Shown here: positions 1 through 16,620 of the stretch, piece after piece
How the letters are laid out: every line of letters begins with the position of its first letter
Position numbering within the stretch: the stretch's first letter is position 1
From: a virus
Lineage: Duplodnaviria > Heunggongvirae > Uroviricota > Caudoviricetes
Strand: one strand, 5' to 3'
Virus record (IMG/VR): IMGVR_UViG_2778261316_000009
DNA: 36,248 nucleotides
Notes under the pieces: generated by a model
Told to the model about the DNA's origin: nothing
Database searches by the model: none
What the model saw: the letters and a program-made list of their open reading frames with translations, nothing else
Position numbers and translations under genes: made by a program

Positions 1-762
1 ATGCACGTAAAAAATGTGTTTTTAATTGAGCAAATAACTAATCTCAAAGAGTGGGTTAATAAGTATATTGGAGATTGCACTGATGAGGAATTAAACGATC
101 GTGAATTTATTGCATCAGTTGTTGATCGGGCTATTTTTCATTTTGCGATTAATAGTATATGTAATCCTGAGGATAATAAAGATGCAACGCCCATAGAACG
201 ATATACTTTTGATGTAGAAACCAAGAATGGCCTTCCCTCCACGGTTCAGCTTTTTTATGAGGAATCTAAAGATAATGAACCTTTAGCGAATATACATTTG
301 CAAGCAATAGGTTCTGGTTTTTTAACGTTTGTTAATGCATGTCAGGAATATGATGACAACAGCTTAAAATTATTCGCTTCGCTGTTGATTTCACTTTCAT
401 ACTCTAGTGCCTACACAGATTTAGCAGGAGCAGAAAAAGTGAATATTAATGATGATAATGAGAACTATCTGACAGCTCAGTTTGAAGAGTTATCTCAACG
501 TGATATGAAGAAGTACCTGGGAGAGATGAAGCGTCTGGCAGATGGGGGAGAAATGAATTTTGATGGCTATCTGGATAAGATGTCACATCTGGTGAATGAA
601 GGAAAGCTCGCCCCTGATATTTTAAGCAAAATGCGAGATGCTGCACCGAAATTAATTGACTTTGCTAAGTCGTTTGACCCAAACTCAAAGGAAAAGATTA
701 AAATATATACAGACACTTCTAAATTAATTTATGATTTATTCGGGGTTAAATCGGAGAAATAA
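1..762 (+). CDS. hypothetical protein on the host-side flank upstream of dusA; ORF is open to the window edge and may be 5'-truncated
   Basis: 253-aa ORF in AT-rich DNA, followed by a hairpin terminator at 801-833; lies upstream of the dusA 5' fragment, so outside the prophage; no recognisable motif. Confidence 0.5.
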   Translation: MHVKNVFLIEQITNLKEWVNKYIGDCTDEELNDREFIASVVDRAIFHFAINSICNPEDNKDATPIERYTFDVETKNGLPSTVQLFYEESKDNEPLANIHLQAIGSGFLTFVNACQEYDDNSLKLFASLLISLSYSSAYTDLAGAEKVNINDDNENYLTAQFEELSQRDMKKYLGEMKRLADGGEMNFDGYLDKMSHLVNEGKLAPDILSKMRDAAPKLIDFAKSFDPNSKEKIKIYTDTSKLIYDLFGVKSEK

Positions 763-800
763 TATGTGAAGTTCTTCGATGGTATGGAAGGCATTACATA

Positions 801-833
801 AAAGAACCCAATGCTTATTGGGTTCTTTTTTTC
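801..833 (+). terminator. rho-independent terminator
   Basis: AGAACCCAAT / ATTGGGTTCT 10-bp stem with GCTT loop, followed by a T-run. Confidence 0.6.
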
Positions 834-1124
834 TCTATCAGTGCTATTAGCAGGGAGAGATATCACCGGAGTTTAATGTGTGATTTTTATTTATCGTCGA
901 ACCTGGATTGTTTATCATTGGCCTTAACAAAGCTAACGGCTAATAAGATTATTTCCATCACTTCGTGAGAGCTTCATGCCTTGAGAGGATCTCAATTTTC
1001 TTTTGCAATGAGACAGGCGCTTCCTGTTGTTATGGTATAGTACCCCGTTATTGAGCCTCCTGAACAGTGATGCTGAATAACATAACCCCATGATATATCG
1101 ATAAAATAATCTCTACATTTGAAA

Positions 1125-1247
1125 ATGCACGGTAATTCTGAAATGCAAAAAATCAACCAAACCAGCGCAATGCCTGAAAAAACTGACGTTCACTGGAGTG
1201 GTCGGTTTAGCGTTGCACCAATGCTCGATAGGATGTACCGTTTTTGA
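1125..1247 (+). pseudogene. dusA: truncated 5' end of tRNA-dihydrouridine synthase A, interrupted by the prophage
   Basis: translation MHGNSEMQKINQTSAMPEKTDVHWSGRFSVAPMLD matches the DusA N-terminus as I recall it, then diverges at about 1230 into RMYRF-stop. Confidence 0.7.
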
Positions 1248-1372
1248 AAAACAAGTAGTTATACACTTTGTGGGAGCCTATTGGGAACCCGGTGTTTTCA
1301 TTTCAAGGTGTAATCCATGCGGGGCATCAGAATGAGATATAATGAGATTTTTAGTGTTCCGCTTGAGAGTCT

Positions 1373-1909
1373 ATGATGCTTACCCTGGACGAGATAGGTC
1401 AATCTGTACGTAACAATATCCAGTTGATTATTGATCATGTCGGCTTACCTCTTGCTGTTGGTCCGCTCAGTGATGATGATTACAAGATTCTGTGTGGTGG
1501 CTATGGTGAGCTTGAATGGGACTATGCGTTAAGCACCTATGGCAACTCCAGAGAAAAGTATGAGTTCTGCATAAAACTTGTTCAGCAAGGTCGGGTTCAG
1601 GGAATACCATCAGGAGCAGCAATTTGTGTTTATGGGGTTGAAGAAAACATCTTTCGTATCCATATGATCGAAAGGTTTTCTAGAGAAGATGAATCTCACC
1701 CATTGAAAGGGCGCATGGTTTTACTCACTCTTATGAGTGCTTTTATATTTTGTAAAGCTGTTGAATGTAAAGTTGTCCACATTGTAGAGCCAGTACCAGA
1801 ACTGGTGCAGTATTACGAGTCTTTTGGTTTCCGCATGGAACAGTGCGGTTATGTGATGTCTGCAGTCATTGATGAGCTGCAGGATATCTTTCTTAAATTT
1901 GCTCAGTAG
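1373..1909 (+). CDS. hypothetical cargo protein, possibly GNAT-fold acyltransferase-like
   Basis: 178-aa ORF, moderately AT-rich, opposite in orientation to the early-left operon; C-terminal pattern (KGRMVLLTLM ... LVQYYESFGF) is reminiscent of GNAT motifs A/B, a weak call; a TATAAT hexamer lies at 1338-1343. Confidence 0.5.
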   Translation: MMLTLDEIGQSVRNNIQLIIDHVGLPLAVGPLSDDDYKILCGGYGELEWDYALSTYGNSREKYEFCIKLVQQGRVQGIPSGAAICVYGVEENIFRIHMIERFSREDESHPLKGRMVLLTLMSAFIFCKAVECKVVHIVEPVPELVQYYESFGFRMEQCGYVMSAVIDELQDIFLKFAQ

Positions 1910-2014
1910 GTATAGACGAGAAGGGGCTACAAATTGTAGGATACCCGTCCAGATTACCTTAAAGGTACATCTATGGCAGTCGTTTTGTGCTTAAACTACT
2001 AAGAAACGATGTCA

Positions 2015-2035
2015 CCAATCGACATGATCGATTGG
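2015..2035. promoter_or_regulatory. perfect 8-bp inverted repeat (CCAATCGA-N5-TCGATTGG), candidate operator upstream of the small ORF at 2106
   Basis: read directly from the sequence; further short inverted repeats follow between 2040 and 2095. Confidence 0.3.
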
Positions 2036-2105
2036 CATAAGTTAGCTAAACAAGCTAGCTTTAAAGAGAGGGTTAGAGACGCCTTTACTGTCTCGGGAGT
2101 TTTCT

Positions 2106-2279
2106 ATGAAAGATCAAAAAGCAACCAAGCCACAGGTTAAGTTCGACACAATGAAAGCATTCGCAGGTATGGGTGCTGCTGTTGAAGTTCTGATGAAGGC
2201 TGCTCCTAATGCGTTCACTCACGCTACTGTCTCTGGTAAAGAGCAGCAGGGTAAGCTTCGTCGTCGCAAAGCAGCATGA
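2106..2279 (+). CDS. small basic hypothetical protein (57 aa), absent from the ORF track because it is under 60 aa
   Basis: ATG at 2106 preceded by GGGAG; translation MKDQKATKPQVKFDTMKAFAGMGAAVEVLMKAAPNAFTHATVSGKEQQGKLRRRKAA; followed directly by a terminator. Confidence 0.45.
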   Translation: MKDQKATKPQVKFDTMKAFAGMGAAVEVLMKAAPNAFTHATVSGKEQQGKLRRRKAA

Positions 2280-2297
2280 TCATAGCTGGTGCTTTTT

Positions 2298-2325
2298 GAA
2301 AACCCGCCTTTAGGCGGGTTTTTTC
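2298..2325. terminator. bidirectional rho-independent terminator between convergent genes
   Basis: CCCGCC-TTTA-GGCGGG hairpin flanked by an A-run upstream and a T-run downstream. Confidence 0.65.
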
Positions 2326-2347
2326 TTTAGTGATGTTCTTTGCCCTT

Positions 2348-2608
2348 CTATTTGCCTGTTCTGACCTGTTCCCACTCGATACGTCCTTCTTCTCGTCTTT
2401 TGTCTATGTATTCCGCAAGATCCTGAATATTGATGCAACGTTTTGCTTTTTGTGATGTGCCGATGCGATATGTTGGAACGGGCAACTTACAAGCGTTTGC
2501 TTTTGCTTCTGCCGTGGCTGGACTCATGCCAAAGTACTTTTGGCTAACTGCTGAGAGTTCAATGTTAGGGGTATTGAATTCAGCCATCAGTAAAAACAAG
2601 GTGTTCAT
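2348..2608 (-). CDS. PrtN-family DNA-binding protein (putative excisionase or transcriptional activator)
   Basis: N-terminus MNTLFLLMAEF ... DLAEYIDKRR resembles the pyocin activator PrtN family; the longest ORF extends to 2635, the third Met (2608) is chosen by family resemblance. Confidence 0.6.
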   Translation of the reverse strand: MNTLFLLMAEFNTPNIELSAVSQKYFGMSPATAEAKANACKLPVPTYRIGTSQKAKRCINIQDLAEYIDKRREEGRIEWEQVRTGK

Positions 2609-2644
2609 AATTTTCTCCATCAAAACCGGCTGCACCCGGGAAAA

Positions 2645-3217
2645 TCATAATTCTGTGCTGGTGGCAGGAATTAATTTCTGCCAGATAGCGGAAACATATT
2701 TTGCCTGATGACGAGCATCAGCCAGGGCGTTGTGCCGTTCGCCATCGAAAGGCATGTCCATTTTGGGGTCGAATCCGATGAAACGCCCAAGCGTAACGAT
2801 CGTGCGTACATCGTGGTCATTCCAGCACGCCCATGGGCAGATTTGTCCTGCTCGCTCATAAGCCCCACGTAAAATTACGTTGTCGAAGGTGGCTCCGTTA
2901 CCCCAGACTTTTAAATATTTCGTATTGTCTGCGTGCCGGTTAATGAAATGGTTCAGTTCAGAGAGTGCATCGCTGATCGACAAAGTATCATCAATACAGA
3001 TTGCAGCTCGTGCTTCAGGGCTTTGTTTCAACCACCACAGGATGGTATCGCCGCCAGGTGTGGCCCCTTGCTCCATAGCACTTTCCAGGCTGACAACCGT
3101 ATAGAATTCTTGTCCGATGTCTCCGGTTTCTGGGGTGAAGAACACCGCGCCAATGGAAACGATTGGTGCATCCTTATTTTTCCCCATCGTCTCAAGGTCG
3201 ATCATTAAGTTGTTCAT
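2645..3217 (-). CDS. DnaQ-like 3'-5' exonuclease
   Basis: MNNLMIDLETMGKN ... PIVSIGAV start and conserved acidic/His residues typical of phage DEDDh-type exonucleases; start ATG overlaps the upstream gene stop (TGATG). Confidence 0.65.
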   Translation of the reverse strand: MNNLMIDLETMGKNKDAPIVSIGAVFFTPETGDIGQEFYTVVSLESAMEQGATPGGDTILWWLKQSPEARAAICIDDTLSISDALSELNHFINRHADNTKYLKVWGNGATFDNVILRGAYERAGQICPWACWNDHDVRTIVTLGRFIGFDPKMDMPFDGERHNALADARHQAKYVSAIWQKLIPATSTEL

Positions 3218-3768
3218 CACTTCACCTCCTGCGGCGGTTCCGGTAGCGGCATCCAGTGAGTTGCTTGCTCAATACCATTACCCGGCTTAATCGTTGCATC
3301 TCCGCGCCGAAAGGTGCTTCCGGTATAGCGTGCGGAGCATATTAGCGGTTCAACCAGAGAGCTATCGAAATTCACCGAAATAAGCACGTTCTGGCCCTTT
3401 TCAGGCATTCGATCACTACAGCTTATCCAACCATCCGGAATCACCGGAGAGTTGCCAGCCTGAAGTATGGCGGCATCGTATGGCTCTTCATCGAGATCAA
3501 TTGGCGAGTCGCATTTCGGGCAATAACCATCACAGTCACCTACTGCGGAAACTTCAATAACCTCTCTGCATGACCAGCACTGAACGGTAGGAACATAAAG
3601 CTCCGCATTAAACGCAGCAATAGCCTTATCAATCACCTTGACAGCATCAGCCATTGCGTAGCCGAGATTACCGCCGTCGCTTTGTGCTGCTGCTTTGCTG
3701 AGTACTTCGCGTATCTGGTGCAGGCGATCTATTGATACAGGACCGTGCGCCGGGTGGTTAGTTGTCAT
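3217..3768 (-). CDS. DUF551 domain phage protein
   Basis: C-terminal DRMPEKGQNVL ... THWMPLPEPP pattern typical of DUF551; ATGA overlap with the upstream gene. Confidence 0.6.
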   Translation of the reverse strand: MTTNHPAHGPVSIDRLHQIREVLSKAAAQSDGGNLGYAMADAVKVIDKAIAAFNAELYVPTVQCWSCREVIEVSAVGDCDGYCPKCDSPIDLDEEPYDAAILQAGNSPVIPDGWISCSDRMPEKGQNVLISVNFDSSLVEPLICSARYTGSTFRRGDATIKPGNGIEQATHWMPLPEPPQEVK

Positions 3769-4037
3769 GGCCTAATCTCCGTTCTGCCGCCGAGAAGGCG
3801 AATAGCAATCCGTTCCCGGAAAGTTAACTGCCGATGCTTGCCGCGAGCATTTACGATTTCCGGTTTCCCATTTGGTGGGTAATTAACCCTGACTGATTGA
3901 CCATCCAGCGCATGAGACGCCTCAAGTAGCGCAGATTTTAAATGCGGAGGACACTCAGTTTGCACTCGTTCGCCGTCTGAAATTACACCTGCAATACCCT
4001 GCAACATGCTCGCTAAATTACTGAGGTATTTTTTCAT
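3765..4037 (-). CDS. hypothetical phage protein
   Basis: 90-aa ORF with a strong RBS (GGGGGAG) and translational coupling on both sides. Confidence 0.5.
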   Translation of the reverse strand: MKKYLSNLASMLQGIAGVISDGERVQTECPPHLKSALLEASHALDGQSVRVNYPPNGKPEIVNARGKHRQLTFRERIAIRLLGGRTEIRP

Positions 4038-4038
4038 C

Positions 4039-4596
4039 TCACTCCCCCTTCACGCCAATGCCAGCGTCGGCACGTTCGGCTTCACTTTGTTCCCAAAACC
4101 ACTTGTGAAGCGCCATAAGCTCTTCGTCAATCGGTGCATATTTGCGGTCAAAGTAGGCCTGAGCATCTTTCTCAGACTCGTCAGGCAATTCACCAGGCCC
4201 AAACAGCGTGTTATAAATCCATGACAGCCCGTTCTTAGCGTCACCAGTTGCCTGCCATTCGATAATCGCAGCTTGCATGACCAGAATGTTCTTCCCGATT
4301 AACAGGTCCAGTTCTTTGTGTCGGTTGCAGATATATGCATTCTCTCTCTGTAATTCAGCATTGCGCTTCTCTGCGGCTTCCAGCGCATTTACCAGATCAT
4401 CAACGATTCCAGCAGATTGGCGTGCGTAATCTGTAATTGCCAGCTCGCATTCAATTTCAGTTCCGTTTTCGTTTGTGTGGCAAATAGCAAAGTAATCGGA
4501 GTCGATTTCGTTATCAGCCAAACGCCTCAGCGTGTCGGCAACCAGCACTCCGTTTTCAATCAGTATCTCTGTTGCGCGTTTGTTGATGTTGCTCAT
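4039..4596 (-). CDS. hypothetical phage protein
   Basis: 185-aa ORF with AGGAGG RBS; stop overlaps the next start. Confidence 0.5.
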   Translation of the reverse strand: MSNINKRATEILIENGVLVADTLRRLADNEIDSDYFAICHTNENGTEIECELAITDYARQSAGIVDDLVNALEAAEKRNAELQRENAYICNRHKELDLLIGKNILVMQAAIIEWQATGDAKNGLSWIYNTLFGPGELPDESEKDAQAYFDRKYAPIDEELMALHKWFWEQSEAERADAGIGVKGE

Positions 4597-5249
4597 TGGG
4601 CGGCCTCCTGGCGGTCTATGCGTTCAATTTCGGCCAGAATAAGTGCGCCAGCTTTCACCATGTCACGGCGTGGATTTGTCGGCTTCCACCATTCTGGTGT
4701 CCACGGCCAGTCAAATGGAATGCGGTTAAATGGATGGATGGCATTCAGTACGTAGCATGAGGATGCCCACAGTAACTGCGATTTGCTGTACTGGTCATCA
4801 TGCTCAGGCGTCCATCCCTCAACTGATTGATGGCGTTGACGCTCTGCAATTACTGACTGAACGGCATTGGATAGCGATTTCACACCCTGCGCACGCACTT
4901 CAGCCAGGATTGCGTCGGTGGCTGGGGTTTCACAGTAAGCAACACGCAAATTAGGCATGCACTTATCCATCATCTGCTCCATTTCGCCAGGCTCAGCAGC
5001 AGCCCAATGAGCCAATGTTTCTTTCGCTGCCGCCTTCAGCCCCGCATTCTCCACAGCCAGCGCCGCGCACTTGGCCTCAAGGTTATCAATCGTGATTCCA
5101 GCAGAACGACACTCCCGCAACGCCGTTTCTAGTTTTGATTCAAGTTCACCGAACTTACGGACAAGATATTCAGCGTTTGTTTCATTCACTTTCAGATCTC
5201 GTGGTACACATTTCCCGCGAAGAAACCCTTCCATTTCGAAAACATTCAT
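4593..5249 (-). CDS. phage protein with a DUF550-like C-terminal domain (Ea22/ead-like)
   Basis: C-terminal GWTPEHDDQY ... WPWTPEWWKP ... VKAGALILAEIERIDR pattern; start placed at the third Met for ATGA coupling with the HD gene stop. Confidence 0.5.
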   Translation of the reverse strand: MNVFEMEGFLRGKCVPRDLKVNETNAEYLVRKFGELESKLETALRECRSAGITIDNLEAKCAALAVENAGLKAAAKETLAHWAAAEPGEMEQMMDKCMPNLRVAYCETPATDAILAEVRAQGVKSLSNAVQSVIAERQRHQSVEGWTPEHDDQYSKSQLLWASSCYVLNAIHPFNRIPFDWPWTPEWWKPTNPRRDMVKAGALILAEIERIDRQEAAQ

Positions 5250-5782
5250 GCGCATTTGCGTAACTCCGATAACTCGTTAAAACGTTCCATAAACATCCCG
5301 TAGGCATGGCCCGGTGCCAGTGGAATCACGTTGAACATCTCAGTTGCCGGGATACCTTCCAGTACAGGCCAGAAAGAGCCATCATCAAGCCCGAGATCGC
5401 GGCGTTCGGTTGCCAGCATAATGAGATCGGCATATTTCACTGGCGTGCTCATAACAGGAGGTAACCCGTATTTCTCACGTATTACGGCGTCTATTTTTTC
5501 TTCCATCCGTTTATAGTCAGGAAGAAGTCGTTTCAGTGGTGCGGGGATGTCCTGGCAATATGCTTCTGTTGCATCATGCATTAAAGCTTCAAAAGCAAAT
5601 TCCTGTGGCACCAGCTGGCTGCAAAGCACCGCATGTTGGGCGACACTGTAGAAGTGTGAAAGATGTCCTGCAAAGCGACAGATATTTGAAAGGGAAACCG
5701 CGATATCGTTAATAACGATGTCGTCTTTATTTATCCTGTCATAATAAAAATGCTTCCCGGAAAAAGTTTTAATAAATGACAT
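5246..5782 (-). CDS. HD-domain phosphohydrolase
   Basis: His/Asp motifs (HSVAQHA ... HDATEAY); start at MSFIKTF with GGAGAA RBS, the upstream Met at 5809 lacks an RBS. Confidence 0.65.
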   Translation of the reverse strand: MSFIKTFSGKHFYYDRINKDDIVINDIAVSLSNICRFAGHLSHFYSVAQHAVLCSQLVPQEFAFEALMHDATEAYCQDIPAPLKRLLPDYKRMEEKIDAVIREKYGLPPVMSTPVKYADLIMLATERRDLGLDDGSFWPVLEGIPATEMFNVIPLAPGHAYGMFMERFNELSELRKCA

Positions 5783-5825
5783 TTTGTTCTCCACGTATAT
5801 GCGCTGCACCGCGCTGAATTCGGGT

Positions 5826-6166
5826 AAAAGGAAGCCCTCACCGTCCGGCGATTATTGAGTCAATTACATTTCCATAAATGCCCCCGTAGGGGCGGTTAGT
5901 TTCTCCACAAAACAGAGAAGAACACCTGCGGTGGCAGCCGCCCGGATGGATTGGGTTATGAGCCCGTCGTCCGGTGATGCTCTTCTCTGTTTTGTAAAAA
6001 GGACGGTACCAGCCGGAAGCAAGGGTACAAGCTGGTACCGCCAAGACTACACACAGCATAAAGTTGTGGTGCCGGGTGCCTCCCGGTGCCTGGCGAAGGT
6101 TGCACACCAGGCGGGTGGGTATCCACAGAAGGTCGACTATCAGCCTCAACCTTAACCCGCGTGCGC
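5826..6166. other. GC-rich, highly structured non-coding element (candidate ncRNA or miniature palindromic insertion)
   Basis: no credible ORF (overlapping Arg/Pro/Gly-rich frames on both strands); 15-bp perfect inverted repeat 5907-5921 / 5981-5995 plus at least four further hairpins (5880-5893, 6005-6039, 6072-6086, 6088-6112). Confidence 0.35.
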
Positions 6167-6172
6167 TGAGCC

Positions 6173-6262
6173 GCATTCACCACAACGCTAAGGATTCTCT
6201 CTGGTTGAAAATACTTAGCTGTTATGTGCCTGTCTTTTCACCACTTCAGGCTCGGTGGTATC
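6173..6262. repeat. repeat B copy 1 (90 bp), identical to 6828-6917 as read
   Basis: direct comparison of the two stretches in the sequence. Confidence 0.8.
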
Positions 6263-6295
6263 CTTTTAAGCCCGTATACATAAAAGGAAAATCAA

Positions 6296-6541
6296 ATGAC
6301 TTTTGATGAAAAAGAACTTGATAATGCAATTAATAAAATCATCGTAACGTCGCTCTTTTCCTGTCTCAGCGACACTCAGCAGAAACAGTTCTACGAATCG
6401 GCTTTCAACATGATCGAGCGTTGTTGTTTCTGCGATGCCGACGAGTTACCTGAAAAAATCAGGAAACAGTTGGCTGATGCTCTTCGAGTGCGACTTTCTG
6501 ACCAATTTTCTGAAATGTACTCTCCGAATTTGGACAAATAG
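6296..6541 (+). CDS. small hypothetical protein (81 aa), cassette 1 plus-strand gene
   Basis: AAAAGGAAAA RBS 6 nt before the ATG; transcribed opposite to the pL operon. Confidence 0.45.
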   Translation: MTFDEKELDNAINKIIVTSLFSCLSDTQQKQFYESAFNMIERCCFCDADELPEKIRKQLADALRVRLSDQFSEMYSPNLDK

Positions 6542-6734
6542 AAAAAGGCCATTTCCATTCAGGGTCTGATGGAAAGACTTCAGCCTGTTCCAAAGCACGG
6601 TGTAAAGAGAATACAACTCCAGCCATAATCTGATGTTTCCCATTGGTCCAGCTATCGCCGCTCTGATCTACAGGAGCGGCTATGTCGTATGACCAAACGA
6701 CTTCACCACTATTGTTTAAAATCTGGACTTTCAT
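6459..6734 (-). CDS. small hypothetical protein (91 aa), cassette 1 minus-strand gene
   Basis: start MKVQILNN lies inside repeat A; converges on and overlaps the 3' end of the 6296-6541 gene. Confidence 0.4.
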   Translation of the reverse strand: MKVQILNNSGEVVWSYDIAAPVDQSGDSWTNGKHQIMAGVVFSLHRALEQAEVFPSDPEWKWPFSICPNSESTFQKIGQKVALEEHQPTVS

Positions 6735-6827
6735 TTTGTTCTTTAACCTCCAGATACGGGCGTTTAATTGCCCCGCCGAACAGCTCTTTTCCGCAATAGC
6801 TGCAATGTCTTTCGCGCATCAGCCTGC
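6693..6827. repeat. repeat A copy 1 (about 135 bp), second copy at 7321-7455, a few mismatches
   Basis: direct comparison; A copy 1 is contiguous with B copy 2. Confidence 0.8.
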
Positions 6828-6917
6828 GCATTCACCACAACGCTAAGGATTCTCTCTGGTTGAAAATACTTAGCTGTTATGTGCCTGTCTTTTCACCACT
6901 TCAGGCTCGGTGGTATC
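6828..6917. repeat. repeat B copy 2
   Basis: identical to 6173-6262 as read. Confidence 0.8.
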
Positions 6918-6951
6918 TTGGTGTTTTCATATAGCCAAGAAGGAAATAGTT

Positions 6952-7143
6952 ATGACCAAAGAAGAAAAAATTCTTTATTTATTCCAACTATCGGTTAAGA
7001 CTCACACTGCATATCAGACTGCTGCCATGACATCAGATAAAAATTACAGTACGTCAGAAAACCCGATAGACGACATAAGCAAGCTTTACGATAAGTTCGA
7101 AGCACTACTCGATAAAAAGTTTGCTGAGGCTGGGCTTGAGTGA
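6952..7143 (+). CDS. small hypothetical protein (63 aa), cassette 2 plus-strand gene
   Basis: AAGGAAA RBS before the ATG at 6952; the longer ORF from 6910 would start at a GTG inside repeat B. Confidence 0.45.
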   Translation: MTKEEKILYLFQLSVKTHTAYQTAAMTSDKNYSTSENPIDDISKLYDKFEALLDKKFAEAGLE

Positions 7144-7311
7144 TTGTTGAATAATCGACAAAACCCAACTTAAATTTTCGTCAGTGGGCTCGATGCCATG
7201 TGCGGTGAGCTCACTTTTCAAAACTCCAAGCAATTCAGAGCTGATTTTCAATATATCTGCTTGATTTCTAACTATTCCCACTTTTTCCTCCCTTGGTCTA
7301 CGCGCGGTCAT
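7105..7311 (-). CDS. small hypothetical protein, cassette 2 minus-strand gene
   Basis: 68-aa ORF; an internal GTG with GGGAGG RBS near 7282 is an alternative start; converges on the 6952-7143 gene. Confidence 0.35.
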   Translation of the reverse strand: MTARRPREEKVGIVRNQADILKISSELLGVLKSELTAHGIEPTDENLSWVLSIIQQSLKPSLSKLFIE

Positions 7312-7320
7312 GTTTTACGC

Positions 7321-7469
7321 CCAAACGACTTCACAGTTATTGTTTAAAATCTGGACTTTCATTTTGTTCTTTAACCTCCAGATACGGGCGTTTAATGGCC
7401 CCGCCGAACAGCTCTTTTCCGCAATAGCTGCAATGTCTTTCGCGCATCAGCCTGCGCATTCACCACAAC
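7321..7469. repeat. repeat A copy 2; carries a 15-codon truncated MKVQILNNNCEVVWA-stop remnant on the minus strand
   Basis: direct comparison with 6693-6840. Confidence 0.8.
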
Positions 7470-7471
7470 TC

Positions 7472-7509
7472 TAAAAACAAATGTAGGATATCCAACATGT
7501 GAGTGTCAA
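7472..7509 (-). promoter_or_regulatory. candidate pL promoter with embedded operator
   Basis: minus-strand TTGACA (7509-7504), 18-bp spacer, TACATT (7485-7480); 18-bp palindromic operators at 7481-7498 and 7516-7533. Confidence 0.55.
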
Positions 7510-7550
7510 GAGTTTATGTTGGTTATCCTACATAAAAAGATAGGCTCATA

Positions 7551-7576
7551 AAAAAACCGGGGATACCCCGGTTTTG
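7551..7576. terminator. bidirectional rho-independent terminator downstream of the repressor gene
   Basis: A6-CCGGGG-ATA-CCCCGG-T4. Confidence 0.65.
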
Positions 7577-7595
7577 CGATAGTGAGGAAGATGTG

Positions 7596-8249
7596 TCAAA
7601 AATCCATTATTACTTGTTTGACAAGACCAACTATTCTGCAGTTCTCACCGCATTCAATAGTTTTATAGTTAGGATTTAGTGGGACGAGATACCTGTTCGG
7701 CCAGTCCTCAACAAATTTTTTGAGTGTCGCTTCTTGCCCACCATTGATATGGGCAACAACGATTTTTCCGTTAATACACTCTGTATCAATAATATCTGGC
7801 TCTACGATAACGATAGAACCTTCTGGTATCGATGGTGAGCCGAGGGGATTGGTCATTGAATCACCACGGACCCGTAGTGCAAATGCCATTTCTGATACAA
7901 GGGCGGTAGTATAAACCCACTCTTCAGCATCTTCTTTCCTGACACCAGGCTCCGTCATTGTCCATGAACCCGCCTGAACCCACGAGATGAGGGGGACTTT
8001 TTTAACTGCGAATATTTCAGGTTTTAGATTTATCTTTGGTTCAGGCGAGCCTTTTCCGCTAACAAGCCACAGAGGATCGCATTTAAGTGCGTTGGCTAGG
8101 GCTTGAAGGTTGGCTCCATTTGGTTGGTAGTCGTCCTTTTCCCATCCAGTAACCGTGACACGGTTCACACCAGTCAAATCAGCCAGTGCTTGTTGTGTCA
8201 GGTTCAGTTCTTTTCGCCTTTGGCGAATACGATCACTCATGTTCATCAT
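7596..8249 (-). CDS. cI-like prophage repressor (HTH plus S24 LexA-type peptidase domain)
   Basis: N-terminal HTH LTQQALADLTGVNRVTVTGWE; C-terminal VRGDSM autocleavage-domain motif; flanked by operator palindromes. Confidence 0.85.
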   Translation of the reverse strand: MMNMSDRIRQRRKELNLTQQALADLTGVNRVTVTGWEKDDYQPNGANLQALANALKCDPLWLVSGKGSPEPKINLKPEIFAVKKVPLISWVQAGSWTMTEPGVRKEDAEEWVYTTALVSEMAFALRVRGDSMTNPLGSPSIPEGSIVIVEPDIIDTECINGKIVVAHINGGQEATLKKFVEDWPNRYLVPLNPNYKTIECGENCRIVGLVKQVIMDF

Positions 8250-8313
8250 GTAGGCAATCCTACCACATGCCCATGTAGGATTCTTGACATTGGTATGTTG
8301 GATATCCTACATT
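8248..8313 (+). promoter_or_regulatory. OR region: operators plus candidate pR, with a pRM-like arrangement abutting the repressor start
   Basis: sites ATGTAGGATTCTTGACAT (8273-8290) and ATGTTGGATATCCTACAT (8295-8312), degenerate site 8248-8268; TTGACA 8284-8289, 18-bp spacer, TACATT 8308-8313. Confidence 0.55.
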
Positions 8314-8344
8314 TCTGCTTAACGTAATTTAACGGGAGACAGAA

Positions 8345-8542
8345 ATGCGGAAATCCGACGTGATTAATTATTTCGGCGGAGTTTGTAAAACCGCCGAAGC
8401 CCTAGGTATTAAGCATCCGTCTGTTTCAGAGTGGCCTGAGATTATTCCTGAAGGCCGAGCGTACCAGTTAGAAAAAATTACTAACGGGAAACTGAAAGTT
8501 GACGTGTCTTTATATCAAAAGACTAACAGTGCTGCGGCATAA
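8345..8542 (+). CDS. Cro-like DNA-binding regulator
   Basis: 65-aa protein divergent from the repressor, GGGAGA RBS, downstream of pR. Confidence 0.7.
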   Translation: MRKSDVINYFGGVCKTAEALGIKHPSVSEWPEIIPEGRAYQLEKITNGKLKVDVSLYQKTNSAAA

Positions 8543-8569
8543 AAACACCACAGAAATGAGGAATTAACC

Positions 8570-9154
8570 GTGGGTAAAGAACCTGAATGGAAAGTTGATA
8601 AACAACCAGCATGGCTGGTGGCAGCAATACGAAGAACGATTGCTGATTTACCTCATGGCTATGAGGAAGCAGCAGAAATTCTTGGTTTGTATAAATCTGA
8701 TGATATCACCCCAGCAAAAGATCAATTGCATAACAGACTGCGTAGCGGTGGGGATCAAATTTTTCCACTTGAGTGGGCCATGGTTTTACAGGATGCCAGT
8801 GGTACCAGGCATGTAACAGATGCAATAGCCCGTCGTAGTAATGGGGTGTTTGTGCCGCTGGTGGTCATTGATGACATTGACAATGGTGACATTAATCAGC
8901 GGCTGATGGAGTCAATAGAATGGATTGGCAAGCATTCCCAGTACTTACGCAAGGCAACTGCTGATGGAGTTATTGACCAAGCTGAGCGTGAGCAAATCGA
9001 AGAGAACAGCTACCAAGTAATGGCGAAGTGGCAGGAGCATTTAACACTGTTATTTCGTGTTTTTTGTGCGCCGGAAAAGAGTAACGCCCGCGAGTGTGCA
9101 GCTCCGGGCGTCGTGGCGTCGATTGCTTCTGGTTGTGGAGAAACTAACGCATGA
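8570..9154 (+). CDS. phage regulatory protein, CII-like / YmfL-like
   Basis: 194-aa ORF, GTG start with GAGGAA RBS; position after cro and size match the e14 ymfL slot; assignment from recall. Confidence 0.45.
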
Positions 9155-9489
9155 ACAGTTTAACAACACACTACCGTCGCTCGCAACTGATTGCGCTTCC
9201 TGTACCGGGTGGAAAAGCGAAGGTGGAGTATTGCTATGCAGTGAATGTACCAGGTGACAGGGAAATTGTAACCCACAGCTTTGCAGAGTGGGCTGTGGGG
9301 GATTTCAACCGGCAGAAGGAGACAGTCCTTTGCGACAAGTTAACCGCTGGTTCAAAGATCACTACGGAGTGCCCGTCAGAGTCATTCGTTGGGAACCGGA
9401 AACACAACGGGTTATCTACCTCCGCGAAGGCTATGAGCATGAGTGCTTCAGTCCGCTCGAACAGTTTCGTCGTAAATTCAGGGAAATAG
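9151..9489 (+). CDS. hypothetical protein (YmfM-like slot); possible frame change into the overlapping 9288-9509 ORF
   Basis: ATGA overlap with the upstream stop; the C-terminal half is Ser-rich and low-complexity, whereas the alternative frame ends in a stop overlapping the next start. Confidence 0.4.
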
Positions 9490-9498
9490 AGGTCGGTC

Positions 9499-10440
9499 AT
9501 GAGCACTAAATTAACCGGCTATGTATGGGATGGTTGCGCAGCGTCAGGCATGAAATTATCCAGCGTGGCAATTATGGCCCGCCTGGCTGATTTCAGTAAT
9601 GACGAAGGTGTGTGCTGGCCATCAATTGAAACCATTGCCCGCCAGATTGGCGCGGGGATGAGTACCGTCAGAACGGCTATCGCACGGCTGGAAGCAGAAG
9701 GCTGGTTAACGCGTAAGGCGCGTCGCCAGGGTAACCGCAATGCGTCGAATGTTTATCAGCTTAACGTTGCGAAGCTTCAGGCAGCGGCATTTTCTCAACT
9801 GTCAGATTCTGACCCGTCAAAATCTGACGCATCAAAATCTGACCCGTCAAAATTTGATGCGTCGAAATCTGGCAAAAAAGCGGGTTTTCACCCGTCAGAA
9901 TCTGGCGGGGATCCGTCAGTAAAATCAAAACATGATCCGTCAGATAAAAAACCTTCTCGTCCGGACGCTTCGCAACCGGACACGCAGACGGCTGAACAGG
10001 ATTTTTTAACTCGCCATCCTGATGCGGTTGTATTCAGCCCTAAAAAACGCCAGTGGGGGACGCAGGATGATTTGACCTGCGCACAGTGGCTCTGGAAAAA
10101 AATCATCGCCCTGTACGAGCAGGCTGCCGAATGTGACGGCGAGGTGGTTCGTCCCAAAGAACCGAACTGGACAGCCTGGGCAAACGAAATTCGCCTGATG
10201 TGTGTGCAGGATGGTCGTACTCACAAACAAATCTGCGAGATGTACAGCCGCGTCAGCCGCGATCCGTTCTGGTGCCGTAACGTGCTCAGCCCGTCGAAGC
10301 TGCGGGAAAAATGGGATGAGCTTTCCCTGCGCTTATCGCCGTCCGTCAGCACATACACAGAAAAACGTGAAGATCCGTACTTCAAATCCAGTTACGACAA
10401 CGTGGACTACAGCCAGATCCCGGCAGGATTCAGGGGGTGA
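9499..10440 (+). CDS. phage replication initiation protein (O-like) with an internal iteron-bearing linker
   Basis: N-terminal HTH block (SSVAIMARLADFSNDEGVCWPSIETIARQIGAGMSTVRTAIARLEAEGWL) typical of phage replication proteins; central SDPSK/SDASK repeat; Trp-rich C-terminal domain. Confidence 0.6.
   Translation: MSTKLTGYVWDGCAASGMKLSSVAIMARLADFSNDEGVCWPSIETIARQIGAGMSTVRTAIARLEAEGWLTRKARRQGNRNASNVYQLNVAKLQAAAFSQLSDSDPSKSDASKSDPSKFDASKSGKKAGFHPSESGGDPSVKSKHDPSDKKPSRPDASQPDTQTAEQDFLTRHPDAVVFSPKKRQWGTQDDLTCAQWLWKKIIALYEQAAECDGEVVRPKEPNWTAWANEIRLMCVQDGRTHKQICEMYSRVSRDPFWCRNVLSPSKLREKWDELSLRLSPSVSTYTEKREDPYFKSSYDNVDYSQIPAGFRG
9800..9950 (+). repeat. iteron array (candidate origin of replication) inside the replication gene
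   Basis: four tandem 15-bp units TCTGAC(C/G)C(G/A)TCAAAA followed by degenerate CCGTCAGA copies and an A-rich stretch. Confidence 0.5.
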
Positions 10441-10442
10441 TC

Positions 10443-10931
10443 ATGAGTCTTTTGAATGAAGTTCAGAAATTCATTGAAGCCCATCCGGGGTGTACTTCCG
10501 GAGACATTGCGGATGCTTTTGCAGGTTACTCACGGCAGCGCGTTCTGCAGTCAGCAAGCAAGTTACGTCAGAGTGGGCGTGTGGCTCACCGTTGTGAAGG
10601 AGATACACGCAGACATTTCTCGCGCCTGACTGAGAGAGCGCAGGAGCCGGAACCACAACCAGTTCGTGAAACCAGACCTGTGCGCAAGTTCTATGTCGGC
10701 ACTAACGACCCCCGGGTGATTTTGTGCCTGACCCGCCAGGCTGAAGAACTGGAGTCGAGGGGCTTATACCGTCGTGCTGCAACGGTGTGGATGGCGGCAT
10801 TCCGTGAAAGCCACTCCCAGCCAGAACGAAACAATTTTCTGGCGCGTCGTGAACGGTGTTTACGGAAAAGCAGTAAGCGGGCTGCATCAGGTGAAGAGTG
10901 GAATCTCTCAGGGAATTACGTGGGGGCTTAA
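10443..10931 (+). CDS. PerC-like transcriptional regulator
   Basis: AEELESRGLYRRAATVWMAA matches the PerC-family signature as recalled; GGGGG RBS before the ATG. Confidence 0.5.
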   Translation: MSLLNEVQKFIEAHPGCTSGDIADAFAGYSRQRVLQSASKLRQSGRVAHRCEGDTRRHFSRLTERAQEPEPQPVRETRPVRKFYVGTNDPRVILCLTRQAEELESRGLYRRAATVWMAAFRESHSQPERNNFLARRERCLRKSSKRAASGEEWNLSGNYVGA

Positions 10932-11584
10932 TGAGTAATAAATATTGCCAGGCGCTGGCGGAACTGCGGAACAAACCAGCCCATGAACTGAAGGAAGTGG
11001 GCGATCAGTGGCGCACGCCGGACAACATTTTCTGGGGAATTAACACCCTGTTTGGCCCGTTTGTTCTGGATCTGTTCACTGACGGTGATAACGCCAAATG
11101 TGCTGCGTATTACACGGCGGAAGACAACGCGCTGGCGCATGACTGGTCAGAACGCCTTGCGGAGCTTAAAGGTGCTGCCTTTGGTAATCCCCCATACAGC
11201 CGCGCCAGTCAGCATGAGGGGCAATACATCACCGGCATGCGTTACATCATGAAGCATGCCAGTGCCATGCGTGATAAAGGCGGGCGCTATGTTTTCCTGA
11301 TCAAAGCTGCCACCAGCGAAGTGTGGTGGCCGGAAGATGCAGATCATATTGCTTTTATTCGCGGGCGTATTGGTTTTGAACTGCCTGCCTGGTTTATCCC
11401 GAAGGATGAGAAGCAGGTGCCGACAGGCGCTTTCTTCGCTGGTGCTATTGCTGTTTTCGACAAGACCTGGAAGGGACCGGCAATCAGCTACATCGGGCGC
11501 GATGAACTTGAGGCATGTGGTGAGGCCTTTCTGGCGCAGGTTCGCCAGCAGGCAGAAAAACTGGTCAGGGAGATGGCGGCATGA
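10931..11584 (+). CDS. phage DNA N6-adenine methyltransferase (Dam-like)
   Basis: NPPY catalytic motif (FGNPPYSR); start MSNKYCQ at a TAATG overlap with the upstream stop. Confidence 0.75.
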   Translation: MSNKYCQALAELRNKPAHELKEVGDQWRTPDNIFWGINTLFGPFVLDLFTDGDNAKCAAYYTAEDNALAHDWSERLAELKGAAFGNPPYSRASQHEGQYITGMRYIMKHASAMRDKGGRYVFLIKAATSEVWWPEDADHIAFIRGRIGFELPAWFIPKDEKQVPTGAFFAGAIAVFDKTWKGPAISYIGRDELEACGEAFLAQVRQQAEKLVREMAA

Positions 11585-11907
11585 CGACGTTAACTCAATG
11601 CCAGCAGCAGGTGCTGGATATGCTGATTTCTTATCAGAAAGAACGTGGCTTCCCGCCAACCAATCAGGAGGTGGCAACCATGCTGGGATACCGTTCAGTG
11701 AATGCAGCGGTGGAGCATCTTCGCGCACTGGAGAAAAAAGGCGTCATCACGATAAAGCGTGGCGTGGCCCGGGGCATCACGCTTCATACCGCGGTGAAGG
11801 ACGACGACAGCGAGGCGGTCGGGATTATCCGCGCACTGCTTGCCGGTGAGGCAAACGCCAGGCTGCGTGCAGCCCACTGGTTACATGAGAGGGGCCTGAA
11901 AGTATGA
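11581..11907 (+). CDS. LexA-type DNA-binding domain protein
   Basis: QQVLDMLISYQKERGFPPTNQEVATMLGYRSVNAAVEHLRALEKKGVI resembles the LexA N-terminal winged helix; ATGA coupling. Confidence 0.5.
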   Translation: MTTLTQCQQQVLDMLISYQKERGFPPTNQEVATMLGYRSVNAAVEHLRALEKKGVITIKRGVARGITLHTAVKDDDSEAVGIIRALLAGEANARLRAAHWLHERGLKV

Positions 11908-12293
11908 AGCTAATACTGCCTTTTCCGCCCAGCGTGAACACGTACTGGCGACACCCCAACAAAGGGGCGCTTGCAGGTAAGAGCCTGATAAGCGCGGCGG
12001 GGCGAAAATTCCAGAGCGCAGCGTGTGCAGCCATCATTGAGCAGTTACGTCGTCTGCCGAAACCAACGTCGGCACCAGCTTCAGTGGAGATCGTGTTGTT
12101 TCCTCCGGATAACCGGCTTCGCGATCTGGACAACTATAACAAGGCGCTGTTTGACGCCCTGACCCACGCGGGTGTGTGGGTGGACGACAGCCAGGTGAAA
12201 AGAATGCTGGTGGAGTGGGGGCCGGTTATCCCGGAAGGGAAGGTCGAAATCACTATCAGTAAGTACGAGAAAACGGCGGGTGCAGCCGCCTGA
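11904..12293 (+). CDS. rusA: RusA-family Holliday junction resolvase
   Basis: MKLILPFPPSVNTYWRHP ... RLRDLDNYNKALFDALTHAGVWVDDSQV is the characteristic RusA signature. Confidence 0.85.
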   Translation: MKLILPFPPSVNTYWRHPNKGALAGKSLISAAGRKFQSAACAAIIEQLRRLPKPTSAPASVEIVLFPPDNRLRDLDNYNKALFDALTHAGVWVDDSQVKRMLVEWGPVIPEGKVEITISKYEKTAGAAA

Positions 12294-12312
12294 TTAAGAG
12301 GAGAAACGAAGT

Positions 12313-13122
12313 ATGAATAATCTGATGGTTATTGATGGTATTGAAGTTCGTCGTGATGCTTATGGGCGTTACAGCCTGAACGATCTGCATCGCGCAGCAG
12401 TAGCATCTGGTGCAAATGCCAGAACCAAGGAGCCAGGAAAGTTTCTTTCCAGCCAACAAACTGTTGAGCTTGTTCATGAATTAACCAACACCCAGAATTT
12501 GGGTGTTGACCCGGTGAGTGTGATTCATGGGGGAAATGAACGGGGAACGTATGTCTGTAAGGAACTGGTGTATGCCTATGCAATGTGGATCAGCCCGTCA
12601 TTCCATCTGAAGGTGATCCGTACTTTCGATATGGTAACCAGCGCACCGGAAAAATTATCCGGACAGGCTGCTGACAAGATGCAGGCTGGCGTGATTCTGC
12701 TGGACTTTATGCGCCGGGAGTTAAATCTGTCTAACTCATCTGTGCTTGGGGCCTGTCAGAAACTCCAGGAGGCTGTTGGCTTACCGAATCTGGCACCGCG
12801 CTATGCCATTGATGCACCTGCTGACGCGCCTGATGGCTCAAGCCGCCCGACGCTGTCGCTGAGTGCACTGCTGAAGCAGTATGGTATCCGCCTGACGGCT
12901 AATCAGGCATATCACCAGATGGTGAAGCTGGGGATCGTCGAGCAGCGCGAACGATACAGCCGTACCGGGATTAACAACATCAAAAAATTCTGGTCGCTGA
13001 CGGCGAAAGGCTGCATGTTCGGCAAGAACATCACCAGTCCCGCAAATCCGCGTGAGACGCAGCCGCATTTCTTCGAATCCCGATTCCCTGAGCTGTTAAA
13101 GCTGCTCGATACCGTTCATTGA
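12313..13122 (+). CDS. KilA-N domain protein
   Basis: N-terminal IDGIEVRRDAYGRYSLNDLHRAA ... pattern typical of KilA-N; strong GAGGAGA RBS. Confidence 0.6.
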   Translation: MNNLMVIDGIEVRRDAYGRYSLNDLHRAAVASGANARTKEPGKFLSSQQTVELVHELTNTQNLGVDPVSVIHGGNERGTYVCKELVYAYAMWISPSFHLKVIRTFDMVTSAPEKLSGQAADKMQAGVILLDFMRRELNLSNSSVLGACQKLQEAVGLPNLAPRYAIDAPADAPDGSSRPTLSLSALLKQYGIRLTANQAYHQMVKLGIVEQRERYSRTGINNIKKFWSLTAKGCMFGKNITSPANPRETQPHFFESRFPELLKLLDTVH

Positions 13123-13123
13123 G

Positions 13124-14119
13124 GTGACCGTGAGAGCACTACTGACCCCTGAAATAGCCCCGCGTATGGGGATTGTATTGTTCAGACCAGGTTCAGAGCT
13201 GATGCCCCTGTTTATGCAGGGGCGTGTCCTGCTGGAGCCTGAGCCGGAACGTTATTCATCTTTCGCCAGTGGTGCCGTTCCGGCGGCATCACAACCGCTG
13301 GCGGATGATCCTGCCGTTAGGGCCGTGTTCCGCAATGAGGCAGTGATCCGTCGTGCTGGTGGCGTGGAATGTCTTGAAAGCTGGTTACTTCGTGAAAAAG
13401 GCTGCCAGTGGCCTCATTCCGACTGGCACAGCGAGAACATGACCACAATGCGACACGCGCCGGGCGCGATCCGTCTGTGCTGGCACTGCGATAACCAGCT
13501 GCGCGATCAGTTCACGGAACGGCTGGAATCAATGGCAACGGATAACTGTGCCCGCTGGGTGTTGTCTGTAGTCCGTCTGGATCTCGGTTTTGATGATAAC
13601 CATGCCGTGACAATGCCGGAACTGTGCTGGTGGCTGATTCGTAATGACCTGGCGGATGCCTTACCGGAAAGTGCAGCCCGTAAGGCACTGAGATTACCGA
13701 AGCCTGTTGTGCCGTCTGTCACCCGGGAAAGTGACCTTGTGCCTTCGGTTCCTGCCACCAGCATCATCCAGGATAAGGCGAAAAAGGTGCTGGCGCTGAA
13801 AGTGGATCCGGAGTCGCCGGAGTCTTTTATGTTACGCCCAAAACGCCGCCGCTGGGTTAATGAAAAGTACACGCGCTGGGTTAAGACACAGCCGTGTGCA
13901 TGTTGTGGAAAGCCTGCTGATGATCCCCACCACCTGATAGGCCACGGTCAGGGTGGAATGGGTACAAAAGCGCATGACCTCTTTGTGTTGCCTTTGTGCA
14001 GAAAGCATCACGACGAGCTGCATGCGGATACCGTGGCATTTGAAGAGAAGTATGGCTCTCAGCTGGAGCTGATATTTCGTTTTATCGATCGTGCGCTGGC
14101 AATTGGCGTATTGGCGTAA
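13124..14119 (+). CDS. DUF968 domain protein
   Basis: C-terminal Cys/His cluster (CACCGKPADDPHH ... CRKHHDELH); GTG start. Confidence 0.55.
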   Translation: MTVRALLTPEIAPRMGIVLFRPGSELMPLFMQGRVLLEPEPERYSSFASGAVPAASQPLADDPAVRAVFRNEAVIRRAGGVECLESWLLREKGCQWPHSDWHSENMTTMRHAPGAIRLCWHCDNQLRDQFTERLESMATDNCARWVLSVVRLDLGFDDNHAVTMPELCWWLIRNDLADALPESAARKALRLPKPVVPSVTRESDLVPSVPATSIIQDKAKKVLALKVDPESPESFMLRPKRRRWVNEKYTRWVKTQPCACCGKPADDPHHLIGHGQGGMGTKAHDLFVLPLCRKHHDELHADTVAFEEKYGSQLELIFRFIDRALAIGVLA

Positions 14120-14132
14120 GTGGAGAACGAGC

Positions 14133-14885
14133 ATGAACCTTGAAGCCTTACCAAAATATTACTCCCCAAAATCTCCAAAATTGAGCGATGACGCACCGGC
14201 GACAGGCTCAGGTGGTTTAACGATTACGGATGTGATGGCTGCGCAGGGGATGGTGCAGTCGAAAGCACCGCTTGGGTTTGCCTTATTCCTGGCAAAAGTT
14301 GGTGTTCAGGATCCTCAATTTGCGATTGAAGGTCTGCTCAATTACGCGATGGCACTGGATAACCCGACATTGAACAAATTGAGTGAAGAAACCCGGTTAC
14401 AGATCATCCCTTACCTTGTGAATTTTGCCTTTGCTGATTATTCCAGGTCTGCGGCAAGTAAGGCTCGCTGTGAGCATTGTGCTGGTACTGGATTTCATAA
14501 TGTATTGCGCGAAGTGGTGAAACACTCCAGAAGCGGGGAATCTGTTATCAAGGAAGAGTGGGTGAAGGAACTATGTCAGCATTGTCATGGTAAGGGAGAA
14601 GTCAGCACAGCGTGCAGAGGGTGTAAGGGTAAAGGTATTGTCCTGGATGAAAAAAGGACCCGGCTTCATGGCACGCCTGTTTATAAGATTTGTGGGCGTT
14701 GCAATGGAAACCGGTTTAGCCGTTTACCAACCACGCTGGCACGACGTCATGTCCAGAAGCTGGTACCAGACCTGACCGATTATCAGTGGTATAAGGGGTA
14801 TGCGGACGTCATTGGTAAACTGGTAACAAAGTGCTGGCAGGAAGAAGCATACGCGGAAGCGCAATTGAGGAAGGTGACGAGATAA
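14133..14885 (+). CDS. late-gene antiterminator Q (QuuQ-like, with DnaJ-type zinc finger)
   Basis: CxxCxGxG repeats (CEHCAGTG, CQHCHGKG, CRGCKGKG); sits directly upstream of a promoter/terminator pair and the lysis genes; about 250 aa. Confidence 0.65.
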   Translation: MNLEALPKYYSPKSPKLSDDAPATGSGGLTITDVMAAQGMVQSKAPLGFALFLAKVGVQDPQFAIEGLLNYAMALDNPTLNKLSEETRLQIIPYLVNFAFADYSRSAASKARCEHCAGTGFHNVLREVVKHSRSGESVIKEEWVKELCQHCHGKGEVSTACRGCKGKGIVLDEKRTRLHGTPVYKICGRCNGNRFSRLPTTLARRHVQKLVPDLTDYQWYKGYADVIGKLVTKCWQEEAYAEAQLRKVTR

Positions 14886-14916
14886 ATGATTTTTGCTGAA
14901 GATGGCGACATGATGC

Positions 14917-14945
14917 TTGCATTTTTCAAAAAATATGGATAAGAT
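14917..14945 (+). promoter_or_regulatory. candidate late promoter pR'
   Basis: TTGCAT, 17-bp spacer, TAAGAT, immediately after Q. Confidence 0.5.
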
Positions 14946-14991
14946 TTTCCCAACGATGGGCTTTGTATGTCTACCGTTGATAAGATTTAGG

Positions 14992-15016
14992 AACCCGCCA
15001 CTGAGCGGGTTTTTTG
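14992..15016 (+). terminator. rho-independent terminator (tR'-like)
   Basis: ACCCGC-CACTGA-GCGGGT hairpin followed by a T-run. Confidence 0.7.
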
Positions 15017-15137
15017 TACCTGTAAACTTGGTGCAGTACAGTAAACACGCTGGTGGTCGTGAATACTGACTTTTTATCTTGCTGGATTTTTAGACAAGAG
15101 TTATTGGTATGTCATGTTAACCAGAAGGGAAAAAGAC

Positions 15138-15341
15138 ATGCTAAAACAGCAAGATATGACAGAAACCGCCGCCGCAGTCCTTCATTTCTTACCTGCTGAC
15201 AAGTGGGTAACGCCACGCATGATGACGAGAACTACCGGAGTAAGCGAAGCCCGGTGCCAGTTAATACTGACTCAGTTAGTTCTGGCGGGTCTGGCGAAGG
15301 ATAACGGCGGGTACGGGAATAAATTCAGACGCTGCCAGTAA
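15138..15341 (+). CDS. small winged-helix protein (PapI/FaeA-like?)
   Basis: AAGGGA RBS before the second ATG; pattern VSEARCQLILTQLVLAGLA is wHTH-like; weak call. Confidence 0.35.
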   Translation: MLKQQDMTETAAAVLHFLPADKWVTPRMMTRTTGVSEARCQLILTQLVLAGLAKDNGGYGNKFRRCQ

Positions 15342-16544: not shown

Positions 16545-16549
16545 TTCTG

Positions 16550-16575: not shown

Positions 16576-16620
16576 TTCCAACACAGCACCCGCAAATATC
16601 GCGAGGTGAGAGATGACGAA

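Follow-up and report, generated by a model that had tools for sequence, protein, structure and literature searches.

The DNA at positions 1125-1247 of the window (the whole stretch of 36,248 nucleotides that was analysed), together with its surroundings, is very probably attL, the junction at which host DNA meets the left end of a temperate phage inserted in codons 33-35 of E. coli dusA. Both this dusA junction and the integration system that produces it are already published, and the window holds a well-documented, common feature. Of 5426 complete E. coli genomes, 663 (about one in eight) have the same attL.

Host sequence up to the junction

The dusA' ORF begins with an ATG at 1125, ends with a stop codon at 1245-1247, and encodes 40 amino acids, of which residues 1-35 are MHGNSEMQKINQTSAMPEKTDVHWSGRFSVAPMLD. 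The original prediction had recognized the N-terminus of DusA in this ORF. A search with K-12 DusA by using tblastn confirms the assignment, as all 35 amino acids encoded at 1125-1229 are identical, and the same search of the whole 36-kb window finds nothing above noise beyond these positions. In both strain 81 and HH107, PGAP treats the same 105 nucleotides as a pseudogene, a partial tRNA-dihydrouridine synthase.

Window positions 1101-1228 are present exactly in K-12 MG1655, and the longer stretch that could be aligned with K-12 (1060-1228) has one mismatch and is otherwise identical. In unoccupied E. coli genomes, a 196-nucleotide probe that starts at 1100 is matched over its bases 1-129, which correspond to window 1100-1228. 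Because unoccupied genomes match the probe only to 1228, host identity stops there, and divergence begins at 1229. An abrupt divergence had been predicted at about 1230. The proposed comparison of 1100-1260 with an uninterrupted dusA locus thus yields a host match that runs to 1228, with a continuous yjbM upstream. The original prediction depended on a nucleotide-level match to host dusA and on the absence of more dusA sequence that would complete the gene here; the match is present, and tblastn detects no further dusA sequence in the window.

The host side is contiguous with yjbM, and the upstream gene order is that of K-12, in which the locus reads zur-yjbL-yjbM-dusA-pspG-qorA. The ORF for the DUF2713 protein is open from window base 1 and has 253 amino acids, compared with 235 in K-12 YjbM. 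In related genomes, PGAP gives a single frameshifted DUF2713 gene across the region that corresponds to K-12 yjbL-yjbM. No promoter was called by a consensus scan, either for native dusA or for the phage-side cargo ORFs. The features of the region are collected in Table 1.

Table 1. Features of the left prophage end and the adjoining host DNA (window coordinates)
Feature	Position	Strand	Basis or remark
DUF2713 protein gene (yjbM region), host, left neighbour of dusA	1..762	+	Pfam PF10897, E=4e-144
Terminator-like hairpin 3' of yjbM	800..829	+	Consensus scan only
Native dusA upstream region, host DNA	830..1124	+	K-12 identity over the aligned part (1060-1228)
dusA' remnant: 35 native codons (1125-1229), 5 phage codons (RMYRF), and stop	1125..1247	+	K-12 DusA, 35/35 amino acids
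Candidate core-type integrase half-sites, imperfect inverted repeat CCAAT-GCTCG-ATAGG	1218..1232		Read from site sequences
Common core ATGCTCGA, attL crossover region	1221..1228	+	Last host-specific base 1220, first phage-specific base 1229
P' arm of the phage attachment site, left prophage end	1229..1372		Near-identical to mEp460, same side of attP
Prophage body: lambdoid early and contractile-tail late regions, runs off the right window end	1229..36248		HH107 collinearity
Paired repeats GGGAGCC-N4-GGGAACC, candidate arm-type protein-binding sites	1272..1289	+	Motif search
Cargo ORF, 178 amino acids, co-oriented with dusA'	1373..1909	+	phrog_4350, E=2e-103; homologue of mEp460 gp23
Cargo ORF, 57 amino acids	2106..2279	+	phrog_2741, E=8e-36; homologue of mEp460 gp24
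G+C-rich hairpin in the convergent cargo/rdfN gap, T-runs on both sides	2298..2323		Terminator scan, 11-pair stem
PrtN-domain protein, putative RdfN-type recombination directionality factor (excisionase)	2348..2635	-	PF11112, E=3.5e-23
3'-5' exonuclease, first leftward early-operon gene after rdfN	2645..3220	-	PF16473, E=2.5e-73; same order in mEp460

Attachment sites and the crossover region

A four-way alignment was anchored on the octamer ATGCTCGA, with attB taken from K-12, attP from the packaged genome of phage mEp460 (NC_019716), and attR from HH107. The octamer is common to all four sites. In K-12, attB reads ...ttagcgttgcacca ATGCTCGA ctggacggacag..., and in mEp460, attP reads ...ttagcattgctcct ATGCTCGA taggatgtaccg..., whereas attL in the window is ...ttagcgttgcacca ATGCTCGA taggatgtaccg... 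and attR in HH107 is ...ttagcattgctcct ATGCTCGA ctggacggacag.... In shorter form, attP is ...GCATTGCTCCT ATGCTCGA TAGGATGTACC... and attB on the chromosome is ...GCGTTGCACCA ATGCTCGA CTGGACGGACA.... Each junction therefore consists of the core between one arm of each parent, with attL joining the left side of attB to the right side of attP, and attR joining the left side of attP to the right side of attB. That attL and attR are reciprocal halves of attB and attP places the exchange within window 1221-1228. Recombining attB with the mEp460 attP in this manner reconstructs the attL of the window exactly, in agreement with the predicted insertion of a prophage in the 5' end of dusA.

Over window 1221-1300, the mEp460 sequence of the P' arm and core agrees almost base for base. 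An independent view of the boundary comes from plasmid pEND_Eco18005, where a phage of the same type matches the window from 1222. The breakpoint in dusA lies at codons 33-35 (M-L-D), inside the conserved SVAPM(L/M)DW target, which is the same peptide position as in the A. baumannii attachment sites.

A direct repeat with a core of about 20 bp had been predicted around 1205-1230. The repeat exists: attL in the window and attR in relatives are identical at 27 of 32 positions over window 1202-1233. The predicted size of the core does not hold, as the exact core within this stretch is 8 bp. The 32-position stretch is itself part of a longer imperfect repeat, in which the phage counterpart of the dusA 5' end agrees with the native one at 86 of 105 positions over 35 codons.

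An inverted repeat flanks the core. It is perfect in attP (TCCTAT-GCTCG-ATAGGA) and imperfect in attB (CCAAT-GCTCG-ACTGG). Judged from the site sequences, this would be the arrangement expected of two core-type recombinase half-sites around an overlap of 6-8 bp.

The plasmid pEND_Eco18005 (NZ_CP126947.1) is an F-type plasmid of avian pathogenic E. coli, and its phage resides in a ParB/Spo0J-like gene of the leading region. The plasmid junctions (at about 11990-12020 in L004 and about 5190-5215 in L006) have only TGC in common with the ATGCTCGA core. In this insertion, the overlap is that of the phage at attL and that of the plasmid at attR. Such a pattern is expected for an event at a secondary site that is resolved by replication, and it may have arisen in that way. 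In NZ_CP126947.1, PGAP labels the phage-borne imitation of dusA as partial DusA.

Genes at the left end of the prophage

Two cargo ORFs lie between attL and the excisionase-like gene. Neither has a match in Pfam, NCBIfam, or PADLOC, and their PHROGs families carry no function. A first impression of the 178-amino-acid protein as an acetyltransferase was dropped, as nothing supports it. The interval from attL to the excisionase gene is occupied by variable cargo that is always co-oriented with the stranded dusA promoter: HH107 has a Panacea-domain protein and a hypothetical protein in this location, whereas the window and mEp460 have the 178- and 57-amino-acid ORFs. The native dusA promoter may drive transcription of the cargo ORFs. 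A perfect TATAAT is present at 1338-1343, without a good -35 element, and could be an alternative source of cargo transcription.

Besides its PF11112 match, the PrtN-domain protein belongs to phrog_1300, which is annotated as 'excisionase' (E=7e-40), and its position is that of mEp460 gp25, also annotated as 'excisionase'. It is probably a recombination directionality factor (RDF), by analogy to the RDF role known from the Vibrio dusA island IMEVchUSA3. Gene order suggests that rdfN in the window is presumably under the control of the phage repressor and the SOS response.

No integrase is found beside the excisionase-like gene in the window, in contrast to the lambda-type module, in which int lies beside xis and attP is downstream of int. 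The original prediction attributed this absence to an integrase at the far end of the prophage. In the mEp460 virion genome, attP is located between the PrtN-like gene and int. Integration therefore separates the two genes, one to each end of the prophage, which accounts for the missing neighbour as predicted.

The far end in relatives: integrase and restored dusA

The window stops in the tail-fibre region, and the int-dusA end is expected about 5 kb farther on; the integrase of related prophages has no match anywhere in the window. The far end can be viewed in relatives, among them HH107 and strain 81, two complete genomes that have this same junction. The HH107 prophage is about 40 kb and is collinear with the window up to the window end; 86% of window 1-25000 is covered at 98.8% identity. 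For 25001-36248, the best match found by megablast among complete E. coli genomes has 99% coverage and 98.8% identity. At its far end, HH107 carries DinI, a 365-amino-acid tyrosine recombinase, and a divergent, intact dusA of 345 amino acids, followed by pspG and qorA. Strain 81 contains a heavily deleted remnant of 8 kb that retains both ends, including int and intact dusA.

An exact-sequence look-up of the baseplate J protein (encoded at 34246-35304) returned ten places. In nine of these ten contigs, the sequence ends with DinI, integrase (365 amino acids), Dus (345 amino acids), and PspG, about 5 kb beyond the position of the window end. Over the last 12 kb of the window (24246-36248), three of the nine (L007, L008, and L010) show 99.8-99.9% identity. 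The remaining contig (L013) has the same baseplate protein and ends in other genes, which indicates that phages inserted at other sites also have this tail module. The original prediction placed an integrase and a restored dusA at the far end, outside the window, and this is the arrangement in HH107, in strain 81, and in the nine contigs. Given these relatives, it is highly probable that the prophage of the window also keeps its int-dusA end.

The integrase of the relatives matches PF00589, and that of HH107 shares 98.6% identity with the integrase of mEp460 and 99.2% with the integrase of Stx phage 1720a-02. Next to it, the phage supplies its own 35-codon version of the start of dusA, present both in the mEp460 attP and in the HH107 attR. 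A replacement 5' end supplied by elements of a dedicated integrase family had been predicted, and such a family is published (PMC4482086). The HH107 copy is in frame and agrees with the native sequence at 86 of 105 nucleotides and 26 of 35 amino acids; the mEp460 copy agrees at 88 of 105 nucleotides, and phage copies overall are 82-84% identical to the native sequence. In the 345-amino-acid DusA of HH107, 9 of the first 35 residues differ from those of K-12, as does one residue in the rest of the protein.

The similarity between phage and host begins just upstream of the ATG, so the promoter of the restored dusA must be phage DNA. The coordinates of HH107 suggest that it would lie within the 88-bp gap between int and dusA.

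Two further observations concern the late region. A perfect tandem repeat of 42 bp, with 4.3 copies, is located at window 31639-31820 inside the gene for a DNA-circularisation protein, and its copy number varies among prophages that are otherwise 99.8-99.9% identical. The last 77 bases of the window (36172-36248) have an inverted match in L007, L008, and L014, about 1.7 kb onward, beside a gene for a Pin-like resolvase. This inverted match implies that the window ends inside an invertible tail-fibre segment that has the opposite orientation in some relatives.

Alternative explanations

A genuine attL could belong to a prophage whose right end has degraded, so that int, the restored dusA, or both are missing, and dusA is truly inactivated. 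The far end is outside the window, no exactly identical genome is present among those searched, and deleted derivatives do exist, with strain 81 retaining only about 8 kb. However, even that derivative has kept int and intact dusA. The window is also collinear with the full-length HH107 prophage up to the window end, and int and dusA are found about 5 kb onward in nine of the ten contigs that encode the identical baseplate protein. We therefore regard a degraded right end as improbable, and an attL with an intact partner at the far end as the better account.

The remaining possibilities question the junction itself. Phages of this type carry an imitation of the dusA 5' end, and PGAP calls this imitation partial DusA in pEND_Eco18005, so the stretch in the window might be the element-borne copy and mark another kind of junction. 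But the stretch is 100% identical to K-12, as opposed to 82-84% for phage copies, host yjbM and the native dusA upstream sequence lie before it, and what follows it is the P' arm and not the rest of dusA. This reading was rejected on account of the K-12 identity, the upstream flank, and the downstream arm, and its probability is close to nil. Truncation by illegitimate recombination, by deletion, or by assembly of a chimeric sequence, and not by an integrase, could be proposed for any truncated gene, and nothing specific points to it here. The identical junction recurs across the 663 genomes noted above, and the breakpoint falls exactly in the core that is common to the attP of a virion. An origin as a deletion or assembly artefact was rejected for these two reasons and is every bit as implausible as the element-borne copy. 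A host-phage attL made by site-specific integration is thus the reading retained below.

Comparison with known integration systems

In mEp460, the integration module is near-identical, with an exonuclease, a PrtN-type excisionase, the 57- and 178-amino-acid ORFs, attP, integrase, and DinI. Its attP includes the dusA 5' imitation. The two phages differ elsewhere, as mEp460 is a free phage with a lambda-like tail fibre, whereas the prophage of the window has a contractile tail and a late region that resembles those of Mu and SfV. The presence of the same integration module with different late regions indicates that the module is common to mosaic phages.

A dedicated family of integrases (DAI) uses one site in the dusA 5' end in more than 200 bacteria, and about half of the elements are prophages (Farrugia et al. 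2015, PMC4482086). The DAI target consists of the codons for S-V-A-P-M-(M/L)-D-W, and the A. baumannii attL is TCAGTAGCCCCTATGATGGATTGGAC (PMC4482086). The dusA islands carry a replacement 5' end and imperfect direct repeats, and 64% have a prtN homologue; the semi-conserved imperfect attL/attR repeats that flank DAI elements are about 21-28 bp (PMC4482086). Several E. coli lysogens are included in the table of Farrugia et al., and the mEp460 integrase is listed as a DAI homologue among the phage hits of their search (PMC4482086). The window has the insertion site of DAI elements and a PrtN-domain gene, its attL forms imperfect repeats with the attR of relatives, and the relatives have the adjacent integrase and the replacement 5' end, with the PrtN-type gene across attP from int in mEp460. 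The prophage of the window does not differ in kind from these dusA elements and represents one more example from E. coli.

The Stx2d phage 1720a-02 inserts about 100 bp into dusA, with a perfectly conserved core of 7 bases (Balasubramanian et al. 2019, PMC6328086). Its phage-borne 'PhidusA'' restores the reading frame, and integration and excision were demonstrated by experiment, with formation of attP dependent on Int (PMC6328086). The C. rodentium attB used by this phage is, as the reverse complement, GCTCCCATGCTCGACTGGA (PMC6328086). Phage 1720a-02 differs from the window prophage in carrying stx2 and another phage body, and it was studied in Citrobacter rodentium. The naming of the junctions is also reversed in that paper, in which attL is the junction that restores dusA (PMC6328086).

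IMEVchUSA3 is the dusA island in which RdfN was shown to be an RDF, and its rdfN is located across attP from int (PMC8409611). A new promoter for the restored dusA was also demonstrated in this element (PMC8409611). In contrast to the window, where rdfN ends a leftward early phage operon, IMEVchUSA3 is a mobilizable island, and the AcaCD activator of IncC plasmids drives its rdfN.

Elements that target tRNA genes likewise carry a copy of the displaced piece of the target gene, which stays functional. They replace the 3' end of the gene, and their int adjoins the intact gene, whereas dusA elements replace the 5' end and the promoter. The SXT ICE carries a copy of the displaced piece of prfC, so that this gene also stays functional (PMC8409611).

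Candidate arm-type sites

The paired repeats GGGAGCC-N4-GGGAACC are found about 43 bp to the right of the core. They are the sole such pair in the window, compared with none in 100 shuffles. The int-proximal arm of mEp460 has three further copies of the repeat, one inverted and two direct. In three diverged dusA phages, repeats occur in equivalent positions and have a different sequence: GGGGTGCT in Yersinia YeP1 (68% integrase identity), GGTGTCC in Morganella IME1369_02 (68%), and GGGAGACT in Salinivibrio SMHB1 (56%). A fixed position with a changed sequence would fit arm-type binding sites, and the pair in the window may therefore be bound by a protein. Repeat sites in the attP arms were not found described in the dusA-element literature compared here.

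Two proposals extend past the papers compared here. The paired 7-8-bp repeats on both attP arms (GGGARCC, GGGGTGCT, GGTGTCC, and GGGAGACT) would be arm sites that covary with the integrase, and integration would swap promoters, with the stranded native dusA promoter transcribing the cargo ORFs at 1373-2279 and a phage promoter driving dusA. We put them forward jointly and tentatively, with the chances leaning somewhat against the pair. Either one would be a detail within a known system.

Proposed course of integration

The anatomy of the junction, the relation among attB, attP, attL, and attR, and the gene order in relatives are observed, and we interpret them as follows; the dependence of excision on Int and the RDF function of PrtN-type proteins are taken from published work. 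A DAI-family tyrosine integrase would carry out recombination between attP of the phage and attB of the chromosome, inside the core ATGCTCGA. The native dusA promoter and the first 35 codons would thereby be stranded as a dead-end ORF of 40 amino acids, while the imitation 5' end brought by the phage, preceded by phage DNA, would be fused in frame to host codon 36 and those that follow. The host would keep a full-length DusA, with nine substitutions among its first 35 residues. In the resulting prophage, int would be positioned at attR, and rdfN near attL.

Significance

The junction fixes the left boundary of the prophage to the base, at 1228/1229. Its value is mainly for annotation, and it opens no new question. 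It explains a 'partial tRNA-dihydrouridine synthase' pseudogene, with dusA not really lost in such lysogens, and it explains an excisionase-like gene that has no neighbouring integrase. The same integration module is present in the Stx phages 1720a-02 and phiSTEC1575-Stx2k. Because Stx phages use this module, recognizing the junction helps to type the insertion sites of E. coli prophages.
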